Positions 11,250 to 50,630 of a DNA stretch of 64,000 nucleotides are shown one piece after another. Every line of letters begins with the position of its first letter. The first letter of the stretch is position 1. A program made the translations under genes and the position numbers. The notes under the pieces are model-generated. The model ran no database searches. It saw only the letters and a list, made by a program, of their open reading frames with translations, and was not told the origin of the DNA. The stretch is from the sequence record NC_010105.1; one strand, written 5' to 3'. Source of the DNA: Escherichia phage JS98.

Positions 11250-11864
11250 TCAGTAAGAAAGAACGGAAAGATTCCAAATGGTGTAATTATTCCATTTAGG
11301 ATTTCTCTCAATAGAGTCTACGCGCAGCGTAGTTCCCGCAGGGAACATCATCTCATCTTCATCATTAATTAATTGTAAGTTTGCTACACGTGTAGATTCA
11401 GGAAATGCGCCTGGGAACTCTTCAGGGGGCGCAGCACATAACATTTTAAAGATTTCTTCCTGATAATTGTACACAAATGGCGCATCATTAATACAAAAGA
11501 TATTAAATGTGCCGTAGAAGTTATAAGATGCGAAATTCCTTGCTACGTTGAAGTCTTTAGAGAAGCTCATCACACGATCGAATTCAATTACCGCACCCAC
11601 ACACATTGTGGACTCTAGATACTTCAGGGTCTTTTTAGATATACCACGATAGAGCTTATCAGGCACTACAGAAGTCAGGTTCTTACGAATAATTTTGTTC
11701 AGAGTTTCCTGGATAGAATCAGGTTTATTTTCCATACACTGCCAGAGCGTGCTCTGTTCTAAATCAGAATACACCTCATCAATTTCTATCTGGGTATTCT
11801 CACGGAAATCGTCGCATTTGGCATTGTTGATAAATTCTGCTAATTTATGGCTTGGATATAACAT
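11250..11864 (-). CDS. modA: ADP-ribosyltransferase, ModA-like
   Basis: 204 aa; R (LYRG), S-x-S (MSFSK) and E-x-E (EDE) motifs; paralog of next gene; T4 position. Confidence 0.65.
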   Translation of the reverse strand: MLYPSHKLAEFINNAKCDDFRENTQIEIDEVYSDLEQSTLWQCMENKPDSIQETLNKIIRKNLTSVVPDKLYRGISKKTLKYLESTMCVGAVIEFDRVMSFSKDFNVARNFASYNFYGTFNIFCINDAPFVYNYQEEIFKMLCAAPPEEFPGAFPESTRVANLQLINDEDEMMFPAGTTLRVDSIERNPKWNNYTIWNLSVLSY

Positions 11865-11889
11865 ATTATTCTCCTCAGTTGATAGAAAG

Positions 11890-11919
11890 ATAGTACCACA
11901 AGCTTCCTTGCCTGTAAAC
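11890..11919 (-). promoter_or_regulatory. early promoter
   Basis: GTTTAC-N18-TACTAT on minus strand, just upstream of modA-like gene. Confidence 0.5.
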
Positions 11920-12488
11920 TAAAAATCCAACATTTTTAAATGAATTATTTTGTACTCGATGTCGTATGGGTCTCTTTTGATAGTTTCGATTTCAACAATC
12001 TCAAATCGTGATAGGCTAGAGACCATGAACTCACATTCGGTTTCGACCATATCATAGAGGTCAATACGGGTTTCATCTATTTCAAGTTCGTCCGCACTCC
12101 CTGCAAGAACAAGGTCGATAGCATGATTGTAGTAGTCAAAAATGAAGGGTGCATTCCTGAGACTTAAAATGGTTTTGGTTCCATATTCCCATGACCCTGC
12201 GAACTGGCAAGCCTGAGAGTATTGTGTACTAAAAGAAGTAACCCGGCCAGGAGACCATTGACATCCTACTGAAAGGAGCTCTAATTGCCCAAGTTCTCTG
12301 GTGGTAATCCCACGATAAAGCTCTACCGGAACCACTGAAGTGACATGCTTACGAACCAGTTTGTCTAGGTCGTAATGGAAGTTAGGGTCTTTTTTGGCAT
12401 CCAGACATTTCTCTAACAACGCTTGTTCAGATTTTGAAAATTTGGAATTGATTCGGTCTTGATAAAGACATTTTTGTTCGATGTTCAT
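11919..12488 (-). CDS. modB: ADP-ribosyltransferase, ModB-like
   Basis: 189 aa; LYRG, TSFST and ECE motifs. Confidence 0.65.
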   Translation of the reverse strand: MNIEQKCLYQDRINSKFSKSEQALLEKCLDAKKDPNFHYDLDKLVRKHVTSVVPVELYRGITTRELGQLELLSVGCQWSPGRVTSFSTQYSQACQFAGSWEYGTKTILSLRNAPFIFDYYNHAIDLVLAGSADELEIDETRIDLYDMVETECEFMVSSLSRFEIVEIETIKRDPYDIEYKIIHLKMLDF

Positions 12489-12540
12489 ATGACCTCCAGT
12501 GATTTAGAGGTCATTATAACATGAAGGGAGGAGGTGTAAA

Positions 12541-12795
12541 CTACTTAAACACACCGAGTGGGACGCCAAACACCGCAATGTCAGCGGCTTGGCCTGTTAG
12601 GGATTGGGTATATGAAGTATAAGAGCTTTTTGTTTCATAAGAGCTTTTTATTTCCGGCGCCTTGGCCGTAATCTTAGGAGCTTTTGCCTGAATATTTTTT
12701 TGCTCGATTTCCTTACGGGCTTGTTTACGGTCGATATCTAATGCCGATGTAGGTATATTAGTTAGCCAATTCATTATTTTACCCAAGGTGCCCAT
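12541..12795 (-). CDS. hypothetical protein
   Basis: 84-aa ORF. Confidence 0.35.
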   Translation of the reverse strand: MGTLGKIMNWLTNIPTSALDIDRKQARKEIEQKNIQAKAPKITAKAPEIKSSYETKSSYTSYTQSLTGQAADIAVFGVPLGVFK

Positions 12796-12962
12796 GGTGG
12801 AGGGTCTTGATAGTAAGAAGCAAGGTCAGCCAGGGCATCTTTAGGCAACTTAAAACCGTGCTTCTGTATAATCATATCAAGTTCATTGACAAGGTCAATA
12901 GGCGGCTCCTGAGTTGTTTCAGGCTCAGGGTCCGGAATGACAAACATATCAAATAAGTCCAT
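12774..12962 (-). CDS. hypothetical protein
   Basis: 62-aa ORF. Confidence 0.35.
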   Translation of the reverse strand: MDLFDMFVIPDPEPETTQEPPIDLVNELDMIIQKHGFKLPKDALADLASYYQDPPPWAPWVK

Positions 12963-13453
12963 TAGTAACCACCGATAGGACCATAACCATACATACGAGC
13001 TCGTAACTTAGCATCACGAATAGCTTCTTCGGTCGGGGTAAAACGCAAACCAATATCAAAGTGTTTCCAAATCTGACATTCTACCTCCGTCAGGTCTTCG
13101 ACGGTAGAAATCAGATAAGTACGACCTTTAAGACGTTCAGTAGCCATTCTATCTCTATCTTTATAGAAAATATCCATTGTTCCTTCGGCATACGGGTCTG
13201 CCGGGTAACGATAGCCTTTGATATGCAAGGCTTGAGCCACACTAAAAGGGCATCCCTCAGCGACATCAACATTTTTGTTATGGTAAGCCTTCATCAGAAT
13301 ATTTTCTGGCAGCTTAATATCTTTTAATCGTGTTTCTAACTGGGTTATAGAATTCATACCATTGTCGACAAAGATAAGACACGCCGTAGCATCATAAGGA
13401 CGCGTTTGGCCTGATGAATCACGTACATGGAATTCGAGTTCATAGACTTTCAT
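12962..13453 (-). CDS. hypothetical protein
   Basis: 163-aa ORF. Confidence 0.45.
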
Positions 13454-13603
13454 TATGTTTTCCTCTTTTTAGTTTACCTACTAAAGGACCGTCCGGAATT
13501 TTATTTTCCTGGATGTATTTCTCGTTTTCTTCCATCATTTTACTACCAATTTTAAGAAGCAAATCCATTGCCTCTTTAGTACGTGCTTCAGCTTCTTCAA
13601 TAG

Positions 13604-13804
13604 TCATGATTTATCTCCATAGATATCACGCATAATCCTAAGGGCCTCGCGTTCTAATTTCTTTTCGCGTTCGTCACGGATGCCTTTAAGAATCCATTCC
13701 TCGGATTCACGTTTCATTTCTGCATTAGCTTGGTCTAACCAACCGTCATCAAGATAATCACCGGGGCGGTCCAGCCAATCTTTAAGCCATGATAAAGGTT
13801 TCAT
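13604..13804 (-). CDS. hypothetical protein
   Basis: 66-aa ORF. Confidence 0.35.
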
Positions 13805-14151
13805 TAATCACACGAGCTAGACGATGAGTCACAGCTTCCCGAGTCAGAATAAGACGAATCGCCGGTCCAAGAACTAACAGCAGCCGCTACTACAATAGGA
13901 GTGGTATCAATATAATTTTGCCTTTGCGCTCGCTCGTCTTTTAATTTTTCTAAACGGGCTTTTAATTCGTCGGCATTTAAGCTCGAAGCGTGAGACCCAA
14001 CATTGCCTGCTTTTTCAGGCTGACGGATAACTTCTTCCATCATACCGTCGCCCATATAAACATATTCTCTTAGCTTGACATCTGAAGGCCTAATAGGGAC
14101 CGCGCCTTCGCCCGGTCTAATTTTGAAAAAATTCTTAAGCCAACGAATCAT
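13804..14151 (-). CDS. hypothetical protein with Ser/Asp/Cys-rich C-terminal tail
   Basis: 115 aa ending SWTGDSSYSDSGSCDSSSSSCD. Confidence 0.4.
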   Translation of the reverse strand: MIRWLKNFFKIRPGEGAVPIRPSDVKLREYVYMGDGMMEEVIRQPEKAGNVGSHASSLNADELKARLEKLKDERAQRQNYIDTTPIVVAAAVSSWTGDSSYSDSGSCDSSSSSCD

Positions 14152-14381
14152 AGGAAACCTCGTTTAAATTCAACCTTATCAATATCATCAGTCTCGTGAC
14201 GGATTTCAGCATTAAATTCGATAGAACCGTCTTCATGCATCATAAATGAATGGACAATAACTTCGGTATACCAAGGAGTATAGAAGTACTTTTTCAATAC
14301 GTGATTAGCGATAATTTCATCCAAAGTTTTATTTGGTTTAATCCAACGATTTAACATAGTGTTCTCCTCTATAAGATACAT
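14148..14381 (-). CDS. hypothetical protein
   Basis: 77-aa ORF. Confidence 0.35.
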   Translation of the reverse strand: MYLIEENTMLNRWIKPNKTLDEIIANHVLKKYFYTPWYTEVIVHSFMMHEDGSIEFNAEIRHETDDIDKVEFKRGFL

Positions 14382-14427
14382 CTATCTTAACATGGCCTAC
14401 TCGTAAAGTAAACTACTAAAACGAAAA

Positions 14428-43940: not shown

Positions 43941-44142
43941 CTCGCTCAAATCGGTGTTTACAATGACGGCATTTATACTGAAGCGGATTATGACGCCATT
44001 GAACCAACTGGACCTGTTCAGTTCCACATTCAGGACAGTTTGGAACATTCTTAGAAGCTTTTTCACGACGTTCGACAATTTTAATAACAGCATTCCAATC
44101 AGGAATAGTTTGGTCAATATCGTCAGCTAATTGGTATTTCAT
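43921..44142 (-). CDS. zinc-ribbon protein
   Basis: 73 aa; CPECG...CRHCKH. Confidence 0.45.
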
Positions 44143-45146
44143 TTCAACAGCTCCAGGGCTTGTTCCAGTTTATCCAGACGATTGGTAGACTCTTCCCAAA
44201 GTTTCTTGGCAGCAGTATATTGTCCGGTCAGTTTTTTGTTAATAGCCAAGGCATCTTTATACGCTTTTTCTAAGGCAACGATTTCCGGTAACTTGGATTT
44301 AGTAATTGGTGTATGGGCCATGATAGGGCTGTTCAAGTCGTTAATCAAGTCTTCTAATGTAGCAGGCTCTTTATCAGTGTTCACAATTTCCTCACATTTT
44401 TCTTGGTAAATTTCAGCATCGGTTTTTGGAACAGGGCATTTGATTTCGCGAACTGTTACTAAAACTTCATATCCTTTCCAGCCTAAGTGGTGGTTGATTT
44501 CTTGAATCTCATATTTCTCTACTGTATCCATCAAAGCTAAAGCTTGTTCTACAATATTCAGGGTATTGTAGGAAATATCTTGGTATTTCGAAACTTCAAC
44601 TTCTTTAGGTTTCCAACTAGGCGACCAAATAATAGAAATAAGTACCTTCCCTTTATAGTTGTTTGTTTTAATCATGCCATCAGCCATAGGGTGGATAGTA
44701 CGACAATCACCCTTTACAAAGGTTTTGGTTGCTGCTTTTAGAATTAATGCGGAGTTAGCCTTAAATTCACCGGCCCAACGTAAAGGAAATAAGCCCTTAG
44801 GGTCGGTACCTTTCATTTTGATATAGCTTTTTAAAACATCACCAAACCATTGGTAGCTAACAACGTGGCTGGAACCTGGGTGTTTCTCTCTGCCAAACTC
44901 TGAAAGGATATCCTTATTAACCAGCCGCGAAAGCAGTCGAGAACCTTTAAATGTATCTATGATATCAGGGATAAACAAACGCCCTGCAATCTTTTCGATT
45001 TCATCTTTGAAACAACCGGATAAGGCTTTATCAATTTGGTCTACCCATTTATTGATATTGGAAACTATCACCTCATATGGGGTTAATGGAGGGGTATTGT
45101 CAGTGATATACTTAGTAAAGGCATTGATGTATTCAGTACGGGTCAT
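44139..45146 (-). CDS. hypothetical protein with C-terminal coiled coil
   Basis: start re-placed to ATG 45146 (MTRTEYINAF) with SD GAGGAGA. Confidence 0.5.
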   Translation of the reverse strand: MTRTEYINAFTKYITDNTPPLTPYEVIVSNINKWVDQIDKALSGCFKDEIEKIAGRLFIPDIIDTFKGSRLLSRLVNKDILSEFGREKHPGSSHVVSYQWFGDVLKSYIKMKGTDPKGLFPLRWAGEFKANSALILKAATKTFVKGDCRTIHPMADGMIKTNNYKGKVLISIIWSPSWKPKEVEVSKYQDISYNTLNIVEQALALMDTVEKYEIQEINHHLGWKGYEVLVTVREIKCPVPKTDAEIYQEKCEEIVNTDKEPATLEDLINDLNSPIMAHTPITKSKLPEIVALEKAYKDALAINKKLTGQYTAAKKLWEESTNRLDKLEQALELLK

Positions 45147-45174
45147 GATATTCTCCTCAGTAGTTGATAAAAGG

Positions 45175-45204
45175 ATTATACTCCATCCGTCCTTGGATGT
45201 AAAC
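45175..45204 (-). promoter_or_regulatory. early promoter
   Basis: GTTTAC-N18-TATAAT. Confidence 0.5.
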
Positions 45205-45205
45205 A

Positions 45206-46099
45206 CTATTTTAGAGCTAATAGTGCCGCGCTGAGCTTGTCACGCTGGTTTTCCATATTCTTGATGCGAATCAATACGTCTTGAATGCTCTTTTTCTCAT
45301 CTTCAATCTGACCATTTAAACGGTGGATTGATTCCTGAATGCTATCTGCATAATAGGTCTCAATAGGTTTCATCGTAGGGTTAGTAACAACCAAAGAATT
45401 ATCAGGTTTAATTTTCCAATGATATGGTTTGGAATTGAATGGACTAGGCACAGCAGTGGTTTTGAATTTATCATAGGCTGCATACTGGCCTACGCTGTCA
45501 CATGATACTGCAGAGATACGACGTTCCATTTGTGGGTCCTTTTGTTGGGATTGATAAGGGGCATAAGACAAAAGATATTCACGAGTTAGTTTAACATTAA
45601 AATACACTGCATCGGCTCGCCCAGAACAATCAGCGTATTCATCGGTTGTAACTTTATATGATTCTACGGCCTTAATACGAGTCATTGCTTCTCTGAATAA
45701 GGTTTCGAATGCTTCACGAAGGGCCTTATTACCTTTTGAGGTAGGACGGAAACGAACTTGAATACCGTCAGCCAGAATATTAATGACTAGGTTACGAGCC
45801 GTAAAATTAATACTTTTGATATTAACAGGAACCGTAGAAATACGCCCTGCAGTGGCCAAGAGGTCTTTGATATTAGCCCGCAATGTTGCACCAAACAGGT
45901 GGGCTGGGCAACGGCAATAATCGTTCAAAGAACCGATATAAGTTCCTTTACGGCCTACACCATAAGTATAATTACCATTACAAATATGACCAAAGTCAGC
46001 TAGCCGATCGATAGCGATACGACGAGTCGTGTCATGGTCGTATATAGAGTATTCTTTACGTGTTTTAATGTTCATATTAAAGTCCAAATAATTTTTCAT
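45206..46099 (-). CDS. hypothetical protein with C-terminal coiled coil
   Basis: 297-aa ORF. Confidence 0.5.
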   Translation of the reverse strand: MKNYLDFNMNIKTRKEYSIYDHDTTRRIAIDRLADFGHICNGNYTYGVGRKGTYIGSLNDYCRCPAHLFGATLRANIKDLLATAGRISTVPVNIKSINFTARNLVINILADGIQVRFRPTSKGNKALREAFETLFREAMTRIKAVESYKVTTDEYADCSGRADAVYFNVKLTREYLLSYAPYQSQQKDPQMERRISAVSCDSVGQYAAYDKFKTTAVPSPFNSKPYHWKIKPDNSLVVTNPTMKPIETYYADSIQESIHRLNGQIEDEKKSIQDVLIRIKNMENQRDKLSAALLALK

Positions 46100-46292
46100 A
46101 GAATTTAGCGAAAGGCCATGCGATACACATTATAATGCCCACTATCCAAAACATAGGCCATACTAGTGTAATGAATACTGCATCATAGCTTGATTCAATT
46201 TCGATTGGATTCCAATCACCTGATTTATGAATGATAAAGGTCGTCATAAATCCTAGCACAAAGTAAAGGAGAATAAAACCTAAGATTTCCAT
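46077..46292 (-). CDS. hypothetical membrane protein
   Basis: 71 aa, two TM segments. Confidence 0.4.
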   Translation of the reverse strand: MEILGFILLYFVLGFMTTFIIHKSGDWNPIEIESSYDAVFITLVWPMFWIVGIIMCIAWPFAKFYEKLFGL

Positions 46293-46376
46293 ATTAACCT
46301 ATAATGTTTGAGAAAATTAGCCACAGAACACCCGTGGCTACGATTACATATCCAAGAACGGCGAGCCATTCCATAA

Positions 46377-47222
46377 TTAATCCTTAAGAAGATTTAGGAT
46401 ATCGATATATTTCTGGCGTTCAGCCTTAGCTTTGGCATTTAGACCAGAGAGTCGGAAAATCTCATCATCTTGTTGTTGGATTGTAACATTCAAGCAAGTA
46501 AGCAAATTGCTAAAATACTCAATTTGGGCTTGATGTTTCTCATTGCTGCGCACTGGTGCAGGTTCCATTTTAGGAGCTTGTTCTGAATGCTCTTCAGCCA
46601 GGTCTTTAATTTTATAAAGTTTAATACGCTGACCTACTCCAGTTTCAGCATCACCAAAACTAAGAACACCGTGCTGTTCTAATTCAGACAGGGCCAAGCG
46701 CAGATGGAACTTCCAGTTGTCGTATTGACACCCACTGTAATGGGAAATAGTATACTCGTTTTCATTTCTTGGATGATTAACAATATTAAAGATAATCCAA
46801 TCACCTGAACCGTTAGTCTTAAAGGTCATTTGTTTATCTTGACCTTTTGCAAGGCGAGCACCAAGGGCCAGTAGACGACGTTGATTAGTATTAAGGTCTT
46901 TAACAACTTCATCAAATGTCATCGCCGGGATTAAACGACCATAAAGGTCGTAGCCTTTGTTATAATTTTTAAGAATAATTTTGGCATTAGCACGAGACAA
47001 CATACCTGTTTTACGAAGAGTTTTCATGACTCGGTCTTCTAAGGTAAACGAACCTTTAGTCTTGTCAAAGATTTTAATGAAGTCATCTTTAACAGTACAA
47101 ACATTGAACTTGTCCCACATCATATATAGGACCTTTTCAACTACTTCTTTAGAACTAGGAATACGACCAAATTTAACAACTTTTTTAACTTCAGAACGAA
47201 TTTGATTAATTGCTTGTGACAT
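46377..47222 (-). CDS. hypothetical protein with C-terminal coiled coil
   Basis: 281-aa ORF. Confidence 0.5.
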   Translation of the reverse strand: MSQAINQIRSEVKKVVKFGRIPSSKEVVEKVLYMMWDKFNVCTVKDDFIKIFDKTKGSFTLEDRVMKTLRKTGMLSRANAKIILKNYNKGYDLYGRLIPAMTFDEVVKDLNTNQRRLLALGARLAKGQDKQMTFKTNGSGDWIIFNIVNHPRNENEYTISHYSGCQYDNWKFHLRLALSELEQHGVLSFGDAETGVGQRIKLYKIKDLAEEHSEQAPKMEPAPVRSNEKHQAQIEYFSNLLTCLNVTIQQQDDEIFRLSGLNAKAKAERQKYIDILNLLKD

Positions 47223-47285
47223 AATAATTTCCTCAGTAAGTAATTAAGAACCTAGAACCATTATACCATCCTTGGTATAAAGCGT

Positions 47286-47810
47286 TTATGCGAGAACCGT
47301 CTTTAAACGCTCTTCAAATTTCTGAAGCAGAGCTTGGCGTTCAGCTCGTTGTGATTTGTACTGCTCGATACGACCTGAAGTGAGGGCGTACTGTTCGTTT
47401 ACTGATTCCCGCATGAATTCAGGAATCTCTTTACAAGCTTTGATTTCGTCAAACTTATCAATAACCGCTTGTTGTTCAGCAATCAAGTTATCAAAATAAG
47501 CGATATCTGATTTAATGTTTGCCAGGTCAGATTCAGTAGGCATTAAACGTTTATTACGCTCAGCTTGATAAGCTTGGTTGGTTTCACGACTCCAGTGAAG
47601 AGTACGTTTTTTGTTAGTGTTTTTATAGAGCTCTACAATACCAACTGAATCGATGATAACAATCCAGTTCCAACGGCTTTTGTAAATCTCTCCTCCAGAT
47701 ATGGTAATCTCATTACCACAAGCAACGTCGTTAAAGAACTTGCTTTGTTTTTCAGATTTGAAATTACCATTGTTAAAATTAATCAGTGAAAAAATATCTT
47801 TAGCGTTCAT
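47286..47810 (-). CDS. hypothetical protein with C-terminal coiled coil
   Basis: 174-aa ORF. Confidence 0.5.
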   Translation of the reverse strand: MNAKDIFSLINFNNGNFKSEKQSKFFNDVACGNEITISGGEIYKSRWNWIVIIDSVGIVELYKNTNKKRTLHWSRETNQAYQAERNKRLMPTESDLANIKSDIAYFDNLIAEQQAVIDKFDEIKACKEIPEFMRESVNEQYALTSGRIEQYKSQRAERQALLQKFEERLKTVLA

Positions 47811-47836: not shown

Positions 47837-47865
47837 ATAGTATCATGTCTAATGGAGATGTAAAC
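47837..47865 (-). promoter_or_regulatory. early promoter (GTTTAC-N17-TACTAT)
   Basis: atagta 47837-47842, gtaaac 47860-47865. Confidence 0.6.
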
Positions 47866-47867
47866 AA

Positions 47868-48209
47868 CTAATAGAAACTTTTTTCACCGGCTTGCCCACT
47901 AAACCAGGCGGATTGTGTGTTCTCTTTCCGTTGGTGTTTAATACGAATAAGGTATTCGTTCCTGATGGCGCAGAGTTCATCTCTGAAGTCGCCTGCCAAC
48001 TTAACCTGCTTACGGTCTAGATTTATTAAGGCTTGGGTCTTAGCTGCCAAGAGCAGTCTCCTGTAGTCTCCTTCTTCGCAATCCGTTTTATAAACCTTCT
48101 CAGCGAATTTGTGTTTAGATTCATTATCATAGTCTTCAATAGACTGTTTCATGGCATTAGAGTATTTCAACTCTGCTTTTACAAGGTCATAACTAAATTG
48201 TTCAAACAT
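47868..48209 (-). CDS. hypothetical protein
   Basis: 113-aa ORF. Confidence 0.4.
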   Translation of the reverse strand: MFEQFSYDLVKAELKYSNAMKQSIEDYDNESKHKFAEKVYKTDCEEGDYRRLLLAAKTQALINLDRKQVKLAGDFRDELCAIRNEYLIRIKHQRKENTQSAWFSGQAGEKSFY

Positions 48210-48219
48210 AATTTCACCT

Positions 48220-49215
48220 TTATTTCAGAAGGGTAACTTCAGCGATTTCGCTCCAGTCATTTTTATCGGTGGCAATGAAGTCCGCCAGATAAAGAGCTGT
48301 ACGTAATGATACGTTACGAAGACGAGATACATTGGCCTTCATCCATGCTAGAGCTTGATAAGTCTCAGCATCAGTCAGACCTCGGTTTTGCATCATATCG
48401 GTGGACAGGATAACGTCTTCAACACGAACCATAATCTCTTCATTCGAGTGAACTCCGAGGTCTAAGTAAACTGAACGAGATACTAAAGCTTGGAGGTGTG
48501 GAGCAAGTTTAGTTCCACGCTCTAATTCACGGTCAATATCAACGTTGGTGATGAACACGATGGTGCCTTCGTATTCGAATTCTTTATCGATATTTTTATC
48601 ATCGAGATAAGAACTTGAAGTGCTCCAGCATACCTTACGTTTCTCACCGGTATCCAATGCCGCTTTCAGAAGGTTCAGGATATCCATGTCAGAGAATACA
48701 TCAACATCATCAATAAGAAGAACACTATTAGGGCCGCGGTTATTCCAAAGTTGCTCGTAAAGACCGATTCCACTAATCTTTCCGTTGATTGATTTATATT
48801 CGATAGTTTCATTTTCGTGGGCATTTTGTAATGCTTTATCCAAAGAGTATGTTTTACCAATACCTGCGGCACCAGAGATGATAAGGGAACGAATTTTACC
48901 ATCGATGATTCCGTTAGTCATCATGTTCATTACTTTAAAACGTTTGTTGATGCGATGTTTCATTTCTTCAGCGGATTCAGTAACCGTTGCAGGTGCTTCA
49001 GCGCCTTCCATTTCAACGTCACATTTGAACACCCATACACCACGTTCAACACCATCAATCTGCACGAATACCTTGCCGTCACCGAGGTGAGCTTCAGATT
49101 CATGAATTTTATTAGGGAACCAGGTTTTACCTGAACTCATGAACGTACCAGAGATTTCATTACCGCGATAGATACCTTTGTTGATTTTGATAGTTAACAT
49201 TTTATTCTCCTTCAC
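48220..49215 (-). CDS. AAA+/P-loop ATPase
   Basis: 331 aa; Walker A SGAAGIGKT, Walker B VLLIDDVD. Confidence 0.55.
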   Translation of the reverse strand: MKENKMLTIKINKGIYRGNEISGTFMSSGKTWFPNKIHESEAHLGDGKVFVQIDGVERGVWVFKCDVEMEGAEAPATVTESAEEMKHRINKRFKVMNMMTNGIIDGKIRSLIISGAAGIGKTYSLDKALQNAHENETIEYKSINGKISGIGLYEQLWNNRGPNSVLLIDDVDVFSDMDILNLLKAALDTGEKRKVCWSTSSSYLDDKNIDKEFEYEGTIVFITNVDIDRELERGTKLAPHLQALVSRSVYLDLGVHSNEEIMVRVEDVILSTDMMQNRGLTDAETYQALAWMKANVSRLRNVSLRTALYLADFIATDKNDWSEIAEVTLLK

Positions 49216-49619: not shown

Positions 49620-50630
49620 TCATTTATAATACGAGTTATGGTTTTCTAGGTAAACCTGCTCAACGAACTTGTCCCAGAACTTCATGTCTACCTTATCAGG
49701 CATACCGTTCTTAGCGGCCCAGATAGCATTAGTTTCGACTTCATCAACGATAGCTTCAAGTTCGGCCTGTACATCTTTAAAAGCATGTAGCCCTTGTTTG
49801 ATTTCAAGGATAAATGGTGCTGTTCGTAAAGGATATTGAAGGTCACCGGTCATATAGATTTCCTTCAACTGATATCCAGCACGATAAGCATGGCTCAGAG
49901 CTTTCCAATCAATGCCTTCATTAGCTTCGGCCTTACGAGCACGTTCACCATATTCAGCATCAAGTTTATTCAGAGATTGCTTGAGCTCGATTAATGACAA
50001 AGTAGTTTGGTATTTACGACCTAGAACAGTATAGAACGTTTGAGGACCTGTTTTCTCGTGGTTATGGAACACCCATTCACAGAACTCGTTTTCAGGGAGT
50101 CGGTGCTTAATATCTTCTACCTTAGTACGACGTTGCTTAGTAGAACCATCTTCTTGATAATCAACCCACTGTTCAGGAATCTGGTTAACAATTGCCAGCA
50201 CACCACGTAAAGCGGCCAGTCGAGAACCCTTAACACCATATTTAGAAGCTTGCTTACGGACGTACCCTAAATAGGCTTTCATGTTAGTTGTATAGAAACG
50301 CGAACGGTTATCTTGGATAAATTTCCATACATCAGGTAAATCAGATTTAACCACCATTTCGGGTGGAGTGTGGAGCATATCTAGAGCAACGGTTTCGCCA
50401 TCAGCAGCCAGTTTAAAGAAATATTTCAGACTGTAAAGCTCATGGTCAACATCATCTTTAGTGTTTTTGGAAGCAGTGTTATTCGTGTTCAGGTTGGTAT
50501 GGTTCATAGCCGTACCTAACAGAATATCACGCGGATGCGGAACAAAGATTTCTTTAAAATCGACATCAGATTCCGGAGTACTTGTTCCATAAAGATGGCT
50601 ACCGAAGTAGCCTTTCATAACTGTTCTCAT
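49620..50630 (-). CDS. pol-beta superfamily nucleotidyltransferase-like protein
   Basis: 336 aa; N-terminal GSHLYGTSTPESDVDF (GS...DxD). Confidence 0.5.
   Translation of the reverse strand: MRTVMKGYFGSHLYGTSTPESDVDFKEIFVPHPRDILLGTAMNHTNLNTNNTASKNTKDDVDHELYSLKYFFKLAADGETVALDMLHTPPEMVVKSDLPDVWKFIQDNRSRFYTTNMKAYLGYVRKQASKYGVKGSRLAALRGVLAIVNQIPEQWVDYQEDGSTKQRRTKVEDIKHRLPENEFCEWVFHNHEKTGPQTFYTVLGRKYQTTLSLIELKQSLNKLDAEYGERARKAEANEGIDWKALSHAYRAGYQLKEIYMTGDLQYPLRTAPFILEIKQGLHAFKDVQAELEAIVDEVETNAIWAAKNGMPDKVDMKFWDKFVEQVYLENHNSYYK

Follow-up and report, generated by a model that had tools for sequence, protein, structure and literature searches.

A fast-diverging family of proteins with a shared head, linker and C-terminal heptad helix in the nrdC region of Escherichia phage JS98

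The window analyzed here is a stretch of 64,000 nucleotides from Escherichia phage JS98 (sequence record NC_010105.1), and the subject of this study is a group of four minus-strand genes within it, labeled A (44139–45146), B (45206–46099), C (46377–47222), and D (47286–47810). The 3.7-kb region is 94–97% identical to the Dhakavirus genomes JS10, IME281, UP19, and Ec2-ASingh, and on this evidence the window is that of a Dhakavirus, a JS10-like T4-type coliphage of the Straboviridae. JS10 carries the annotations nrdC.4, hypothetical, nrdC.6, and nrdC.8 for the four genes, within a block that runs nrdC, nrdC.1, nrdC.2, and onward to nrdC.10 and nrdC.11. The same PHROGs are found in the same order in T4: NrdC.3 and NrdC.4 (both phrog_1435), NrdC.5 (phrog_2351), NrdC.6 (phrog_2257), and NrdC.8 (phrog_2274). 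Judged by these matches, A, B, C, and D are homologs of the long-known T4 open reading frames (ORFs) nrdC.4, nrdC.5, nrdC.6, and nrdC.8; the NrdC.3 copy of T4 has no counterpart in the Dhakavirus window. An earlier note on this DNA had said of a shared tail on varied heads that it is not a described T4 feature. The genes themselves are well known in that phage and one has a published function, although a literature search found no published account of their paralogy or of a shared tail. The analysis below indicates that A, B, and C are whole-length paralogs ending in a common C-terminal heptad helix, and that D is unrelated to them.

Gene A encodes a 335-residue NrdC.4 homolog (phrog_1435, E = 8e-139; precomputed Pfam PF26897) with 41% identity to T4 NrdC.4 and 27% to T4 NrdC.3. 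Its head comprises residues 1–256 (44379–45146, minus strand), followed by a disordered linker (residues 257–286, 44289–44378) and a heptad tail helix (residues 287–335, 44142–44288). Gene C encodes a 281-residue NrdC.6 homolog (phrog_2257, E = 9e-126; precomputed Pfam PF26899), 49% identical to T4 NrdC.6, with a head of residues 1–205, a disordered linker of residues 206–227 (46542–46607, minus strand), and a tail of residues 228–281 (46380–46541). The product of gene B belongs to the NrdC.5 family, matching Pfam DUF7235 (PF23882) with E = 6e-126 (420 bits; cutoff, 30 bits) and phrog_2351 with E = 5e-109. In a BLASTP comparison it aligns with T4 NrdC.5 over the full length, collinearly, at 24% identity (E = 2e-16). 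Its gene occupies the syntenic slot flanked by the homologs of nrdC.6 and nrdC.4 within the nrdC–nrdC.11 block, and the heptad tail covers approximately residues 245–297 (45209–45367, minus strand) in the numbering of the longest ORF, which has 297 residues. The true start is probably M9 (ATG at 46075), giving 289 residues, since most database homologs have this length and a conserved N-terminal ‘KTR..Y’ family motif is present. Gene D encodes a 174-residue NrdC.8 homolog (phrog_2274, E = 4e-102), 69% identical to T4 NrdC.8. Pfam, PHROG, and PADLOC gave no function for the four products: the families matched were DUFs and PHROGs of unknown function, with no PADLOC match for any of A–D. No relatives came to light in the PDB when its sequences were searched with T4 NrdC.5 and with the family profiles of A, C, and D.

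The ORFs lie at the coordinates given in the earlier note, all on the minus strand, but its word ‘consecutive’ is loose, as an ORF for a hydrophobic, predicted 71-residue membrane protein lies between C and B (46077–46292, minus strand; phrog_7899, E = 3e-32). It has no annotation in JS10 and is outside the paralog family. The ATG of gene B at 46075 comes directly after its TAA stop codon (start context TAATATG). In T4 a nearby slot contains a 133-residue membrane protein, NrdC.7, in place of the 71-residue one.

The N-terminal domains of the four products had been described as unrelated, which is wrong for A, B, and C and correct only for D in relation to the other three. Family profiles were compared with hhalign; these profiles are shallow, and reversed-sequence controls for the head-only comparisons gave P values of 0.08–0.35. 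Full-length profiles of the A and B families align collinearly over 232 columns with P = 2e-4, pairing three head motifs (SRLVNKDILSEFG with TRRIAIDRLADFG, RWAGEFKANSALILKAATK with LFGATLRANIKDLLATAGR, and EQALALMDTVEKYEIQE with REAMTRIKAVESYKVTT). Heads alone align for A and NrdC.3 (P = 2.4e-14, 203 columns), for A and the single-copy proteins of other genera (P = 1.8e-9, 197 columns), and for A and B (P = 3.5e-5, 122 columns). The head of C is linked more weakly yet collinearly, with P = 0.0034 against the single-copy proteins and 0.04 against A. Cross-matches between families were also obtained with hidden Markov models in a database of 21 sequences; E-values from so small a set cannot be compared with those of database-wide searches.

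The weak profile link of C is made good by structural evidence. Monomer models of A and C, built with AlphaFold2 from the family alignments, show the same succession of elements. Five or six helices at the N-terminus are followed by two more helices and a β-hairpin; a long helix and another β-hairpin then lead to the linker and the terminal helix. When the model of A was searched with Foldseek against viral predicted structures, the matches included an NrdC.3-type protein of phage fPS-65 (E = 9.5e-9), proteins of 318–374 residues from T4-like phages of Erwinia, Acinetobacter, and Serratia, and a 378-residue protein of Shigella phage Sf25 (E = 1.2e-3, probability 1.0). The model of C matched the same Sf25 protein (E = 4.5e-18) and the same Serratia phage PS2 protein as the model of A. 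By name and length, the Sf25 protein appears to be P0176, a member of the C family. Genes A, B, and C, T4 NrdC.3–NrdC.6, and the single-copy proteins of about 300–380 residues in other T4-like genera are thus one superfamily of whole-length paralogs, and the homology of the heads indicates that the array arose by tandem duplication and divergence rather than by the spread of a tail onto different heads.

In the region examined, Winklervirus CHI14, Gelderlandvirus NP4, and Jiaodavirus KEN39 each have one copy, Tequatroviruses up to four, and this Dhakavirus three. Two proteins of Acinetobacter phage Acj61 with adjacent accessions in BFVD (E5E4A1 and E5E4A2, 330 and 304 residues) were matched by the models of A and C, respectively, which suggests independent or ancient tandem copies. 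Outside T4-like phages (Straboviridae) and metagenomic contigs, our searches found hardly any member of the superfamily. Three entries of the NrdC.4 family (P0070, P0073, and P0074) are filed under Bacillus cereus, Salmonella enterica, and Escherichia coli; their contigs are 32–172 kb long and most probably come from phages, as genomes or as contamination deposited under bacterial names.

The C-terminal peptides quoted in the earlier note are the true C-termini of the four ORFs, and its statement that each product ends in a heptad-like tail stands for A, B, and C, where periodicity and register agree (as do the AlphaFold2 models of A and C), but not for D. The coiled-coil tests were home-made, a 28-residue heptad a/d scorer and a Fourier test taking the place of COILS or MARCOIL. 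When windows from the ORF proteins of this phage are ranked by the scorer, the tails of all four products and those of relatives in T4 and other phages come out at about the 99.3rd percentile or higher; this background contains the tested proteins themselves and some non-coding ORFs. The same tails outscore composition-matched shuffles with P values from <0.002 to 0.042. For A, NrdC.3, B, and C, the Fourier spectrum of family-averaged hydrophobicity has its global maximum at 3.45 residues (A, P = 0.013; B, P = 0.003; C, P = 0.03), and the power at 3.5 exceeds that at 3.6 by two- to four-fold (P = 0.003–0.03, column shuffles). This is the period of a coiled coil, not that of a plain amphipathic helix. 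In all four families a single unbroken a/d register runs for 6.5–7.5 heptads and finishes in the identical phase (d-e-COOH). In A, B, and C the heptad helix follows a disordered linker and ends about 1–2 residues past a ‘d’ position; the Leu/Ile-rich a/d core is exemplified by ILVLAVALAVLRLLL in T4 NrdC.5. The gap-free average of the single-copy trio (CHI14, NP4, and KEN39) gave no periodicity signal, the three proteins being too divergent to anchor it. A regular expression for the terminal motif was too loose to be of use, as it matched 4 of 98 ORFs, two of them unrelated, and missed C.

The AlphaFold2 models agree with this picture. The model of A (mean pLDDT, the predicted local distance difference test score, 80.7) has a confident head, a linker with pLDDT below 50 at residues 271–286, and one uninterrupted 48-residue helix at residues 287–334. 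That of C (pLDDT 78.9) has its low-confidence linker (pLDDT below 50) at residues 208–227, followed by helices at residues 228–257 and 263–280. In both monomers the long terminal helix is solitary, and no packing of it into the head was reported. The C-terminal heptad helix common to A, B, and C has the look of an oligomerization or interaction module; the association itself we infer.

Compared as single sequences by BLASTP, the four proteins gave only one weak match, an end-to-end alignment of the A and B tails (E = 0.36), and profiles were therefore needed. Tail-only hhalign alignments run end to end for NrdC.3 and B (P = 2.6e-4), NrdC.3 and the single-copy proteins (P = 5.7e-5), and B and the single-copy proteins (P = 6.7e-8), against 0.006–0.24 for reversed-sequence controls. 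The tails of A and C match other tails marginally (P = 0.05–0.16), and the terminal 11 columns are always anchored at the C-terminus. Common descent is the simplest reading, given that the tails occupy equivalent positions in proteins whose overall architecture is homologous and have the same heptad phase. Neither DNA repeats nor gene conversion could be found between the segments that encode the tails, and the sole repeated stretches were similarities around ribosome-binding sites and starts; the likeness of the tails is thus old and at the protein level, and not the result of recent gene conversion.

Gene D represents a separate family. Its product consists of a conserved N-terminal domain of about 90 residues (47547–47810, minus strand) and a variable helical C-terminal half (47289–47546, minus strand). 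An exhaustive phmmer search with D returned 45 representatives at E ≤ 1e-3, mainly matching residues 3–90, with the conserved motifs NNGxFKSEKQ..F, D..GV, and W.R and a variable tail. Comparison with the A, B, and C families by hhalign gave P values of at least 0.06 for heads and at least 0.008 for tails, the best of the latter being a match of 12 columns only. Neither the two helical segments of D, which are split by Pro129, nor its last 28 residues have a significant 3.5-residue signal (P = 0.2–0.35), and its best heptad register has poor core positions, although some 28-residue windows score high. The possibility that D is a truncated member of the superfamily was considered and rejected. 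A weak match of the C profile to D residues 69–122 (E = 0.005 in the 21-sequence database) and the 12-column ‘AERQ’ match suggested it, but the hhalign comparisons of heads and tails and D's own alignment give it no support. Searching the PDB with the C-terminal half of the D profile gave only generic helical-bundle or coiled-coil noise, and when two larger relatives of D, P0215 and P0236, were scanned with Pfam for fusions that might be informative, all matches were below threshold and of coiled-coil type. D is an unrelated small protein with a conserved N-terminal domain and an ordinary helical C-terminal half; by its position it is a candidate for a further accessory or anti-defense protein.

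Conservation within each orthologous family is highest in the tail and lowest in the linker. Identities of tail, head, and linker between distant orthologs are 71, 40, and 34% for A, 60, 42, and 27% for C, and 50, 34, and 27% for B. The tails contain invariant polar residues, namely Trp317, Glu318, Glu319, and Arg323 in A, and Asp252, Asp253, Glu254, Arg257, Glu268, and Arg269 in C. Relative to the T4 proteins, the 24–49% identity of A, B, and C compares with 69–85% for flanking genes (NrdC, 85%; NrdC.11, 84%; NrdC.10, 78%; NrdC.2, 75%; NrdC.8, 69%), so that A, B, and C evolve much faster than their neighbors. Divergence at this rate would fit an arms race.

The fast-evolving stretch may extend beyond the paralog array. 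An NrdC.9-like gene (47868–48209, minus strand; DUF7203, 113 residues) is very divergent, with 27% identity to T4 over 66 residues. The NrdC.10 and NrdC.11 genes that follow (48220–49215 and 49620–50630, both minus strand) are 78–84% identical to those of T4 and far better conserved than the array. NrdC.10, whose homologs extend to Vibrio phages and jumbo phages, is an AAA/STAND-like P-loop ATPase; its Pfam matches to AAA_14, AAA_22, and nSTAND NTPases are below threshold, and its PADLOC matches to GajB/PtuA are weak. In other phages, NrdC.11 carries the annotation of a nucleotidyltransferase.

A scan for promoters and terminators gave a few plausible sites resembling early promoters, the total for the region not being above the shuffled expectation. 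One such site on the minus strand (TTTACA-17-TATAAT, 45175–45203) matches the σ70-type consensus at 11 of 12 positions just upstream of the ATG of A, and would fit A being an individually transcribed early gene. Another (TTTACA-16-TACTAT with an upstream TG, 47837–47864, minus strand) lies upstream of D; both sites are consensus matches only. Downstream of C there is a terminator-like stem-loop on the minus strand (46318–46340) with a 10-bp stem, five GC pairs, and a T-rich tail after it.

The function of the array can be approached through the one member whose activity is known. T4 NrdC.5 neutralizes the sirtuin defense Dsr1, and T4 nrdC.5 restores plating on Dsr1-carrying cells (PMC9391042). 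Gene B has the same Pfam and PHROG assignment, syntenic slot, and head–linker–heptad-tail layout as T4 NrdC.5, as well as the terminal ...QR.KL..AL.AL(K/N); A and C are more distant paralogs. They are in turn homologous to the early T4 ORFs NrdC.3/NrdC.4 (phrog_1435, PF26897) and NrdC.6 (phrog_2257, PF26899), respectively, with the same order and architecture. Identity between B and T4 NrdC.5 is only 24%, and anti-Dsr1 activity is known for the T4 protein alone, so the activity or target of B could differ. The reading that we favor as probable is that the tandem genes A, B, and C encode early-expressed, oligomeric inhibitors of host defenses with diversifying heads. We infer here both that A, C, and the 24%-identical B are defense inhibitors and that the tail oligomerizes.

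Each protein has an α/β head of about 200–255 residues, a disordered linker of 20–30 residues, and a C-terminal heptad helix of 45–55 residues, and according to this proposal would act early in the cytoplasm against host anti-phage defense proteins. The fast-diverging head would be the specificity determinant, directed at different defense proteins or at their allelic forms. The conserved tail would form a homo-oligomeric coiled coil holding two or more heads on flexible tethers, and several tethered heads could provide avidity against oligomeric defense complexes. A modular effector or adaptor family had been suggested for these genes. What remains of that suggestion is an effector-like character, given the action of T4 NrdC.5 against Dsr1, together with a conserved tail and a varying head; the heads are homologous and not different folds.

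Known systems offer partial parallels. The T4 pin–nrdC island is the same neighborhood of small early accessory genes, and counter-defense has been shown there for Gp49.2, which inhibits OLD (PMC13096335), for NrdC.1, which inhibits Septu (bioRxiv 10.1101/2025.11.20.689424), and for Pin, which acts against Lon. These three are unrelated in sequence to A, B, and C, are much smaller, and none is reported to have this architecture. The T4 internal proteins IPI, IPII, and IPIII have a shared terminal targeting sequence on different bodies, and IPI is also an anti-defense protein. For IPIII an anti-defense role is reported as well (PMC9391042). They provide a precedent in T4 for accessory anti-defense proteins with a short conserved terminal module on divergent bodies. 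Their module, a capsid-targeting peptide at the N-terminus, is removed by cleavage, whereas that of the NrdC proteins is a C-terminal heptad helix, and the NrdC proteins are early and cytoplasmic with no sign of packaging. DSAD1 of phage SPbeta is reported to bind the sensor region of a SIR2-family NADase (DSR2) and to block its activation by a structural-protein trigger. The comparison with the NrdC family is one of functional analogy only, between different phage lineages and hosts, and no kinship of sequence or fold is claimed. We know of no coiled-coil tail in DSAD1.

The main alternative, a rather unlikely one, is that the tail is a partner-binding helix, docking on the target itself (for example, a Dsr1-like sensor of tetratricopeptide-repeat (TPR) or α-solenoid type) or on a common phage or host hub, while the head blocks or acts as a decoy. 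TPR domains commonly bind helices or C-terminal peptides. The sensor of Dsr1 is such a TPR-repeat domain (preprint PMC12803255). The invariant polar residues of the A and C tails exceed the needs of a generic zipper, and the tail, tethered by a flexible linker, has a free C-terminus that is conserved. Against docking, the periodicity of 3.45–3.5 rather than 3.6 and the unbroken Leu/Ile a/d core (ILVLAVALAVLRLLL in T4 NrdC.5) are the signature of helix–helix supercoiling, and the strong differences between the tails of the paralogs make one hub common to all unlikely. The invariant polar residues can fit either an oligomerization or a docking-helix model.

It is quite improbable that the likeness of the tails reflects nothing more than a generic amphipathic C-terminal helix without shared function, in proteins that are merely fast-evolving ORFans. 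The A and C tail matches, which are near their reversed controls, would allow it, as would the helical, Leu-rich C-terminus of the unrelated neighbor D and the two unrelated ORFs caught by the loose terminal-motif expression. These points are outweighed by the NrdC.3, NrdC.5, and single-copy tails, which align end to end with P values from 3e-4 to 7e-8, well above controls, by a C-terminal heptad phase identical in all paralogs, by the tail being the most conserved region of every family, and by its constant position in a shared whole-protein architecture.

A mobile oligomerization tail shuffled onto unrelated heads, the model of the earlier note, is highly improbable. Recombinants of head and tail do arise: Salmonella phage Manna (PP987310.1, 6113–7150) encodes a 345-residue in-frame chimera in which NrdC.6 to about residue 270 is joined to NrdC.4 from about residue 250. 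Its residues 1–287 are 88% identical to T4 NrdC.6 and its residues 263–345 are 96% identical to residues 251–333 of T4 NrdC.4 (T4 counterpart region, 11436–14416), and the product is an NrdC.6 head with the linker and tail of NrdC.4. Approximately 1.9 kb are deleted, with an overlap of about 20 nucleotides at the junction, and NrdC.5 and the NrdC.4 head are gone. This event is a simple deletion between neighboring paralogs. D, with its different head and helical C-terminal half, might seem a further case, but that half does not pass the heptad test, and no kinship between it and the other tails is detectable. Homology and collinearity link the heads of A, B, and C, whose secondary-structure elements also come in one order, and the tail-coding segments contain no DNA repeats.

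A role in nucleotide or redox metabolism is scarcely credible: these genes adjoin nrdC, and many GenBank and UniRef records of NrdC.3–NrdC.11 homologs are labeled ‘thioredoxin’, but the proteins tested have no thioredoxin Pfam match and no CxxC-type fold, the label is equally on the unrelated neighbors NrdC.10 and NrdC.11, and NrdC.5 has a demonstrated anti-defense role. The label seems to have been taken over from the gene names (nrdC.N), and its use on many database entries of these genes is flagged here as unsupported.

What is new here, a modest insight, is the superfamily relationship and the head–linker–coiled-coil architecture. Inhibition of host defenses by an oligomeric array remains the preferred interpretation, and a bolder version of it can be formulated. 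The NrdC.3/4/5/6 superfamily would then be an expandable family of coiled-coil-oligomerized decoys or inhibitors, each head tuned to a different TPR-sensor defense protein of the Dsr1/Avs7 type (with NADase, nuclease, or kinase effectors), and co-expressed paralogs might hetero-oligomerize by way of their related tails into mixed, multi-specific inhibitor complexes. This version is distinctly unlikely; if it were true, one gene family would explain much of the breadth of host range among T4-like phages. If the genes are one family, up to three or four uncharacterized genes per T4-like genome become anti-defense candidates, directly screenable against libraries of defense systems or panels of wild E. 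coli. NrdC.5 could likewise be dissected, tail deletions and swaps addressing oligomerization and head swaps specificity, with the Manna fusion as a ready-made example.

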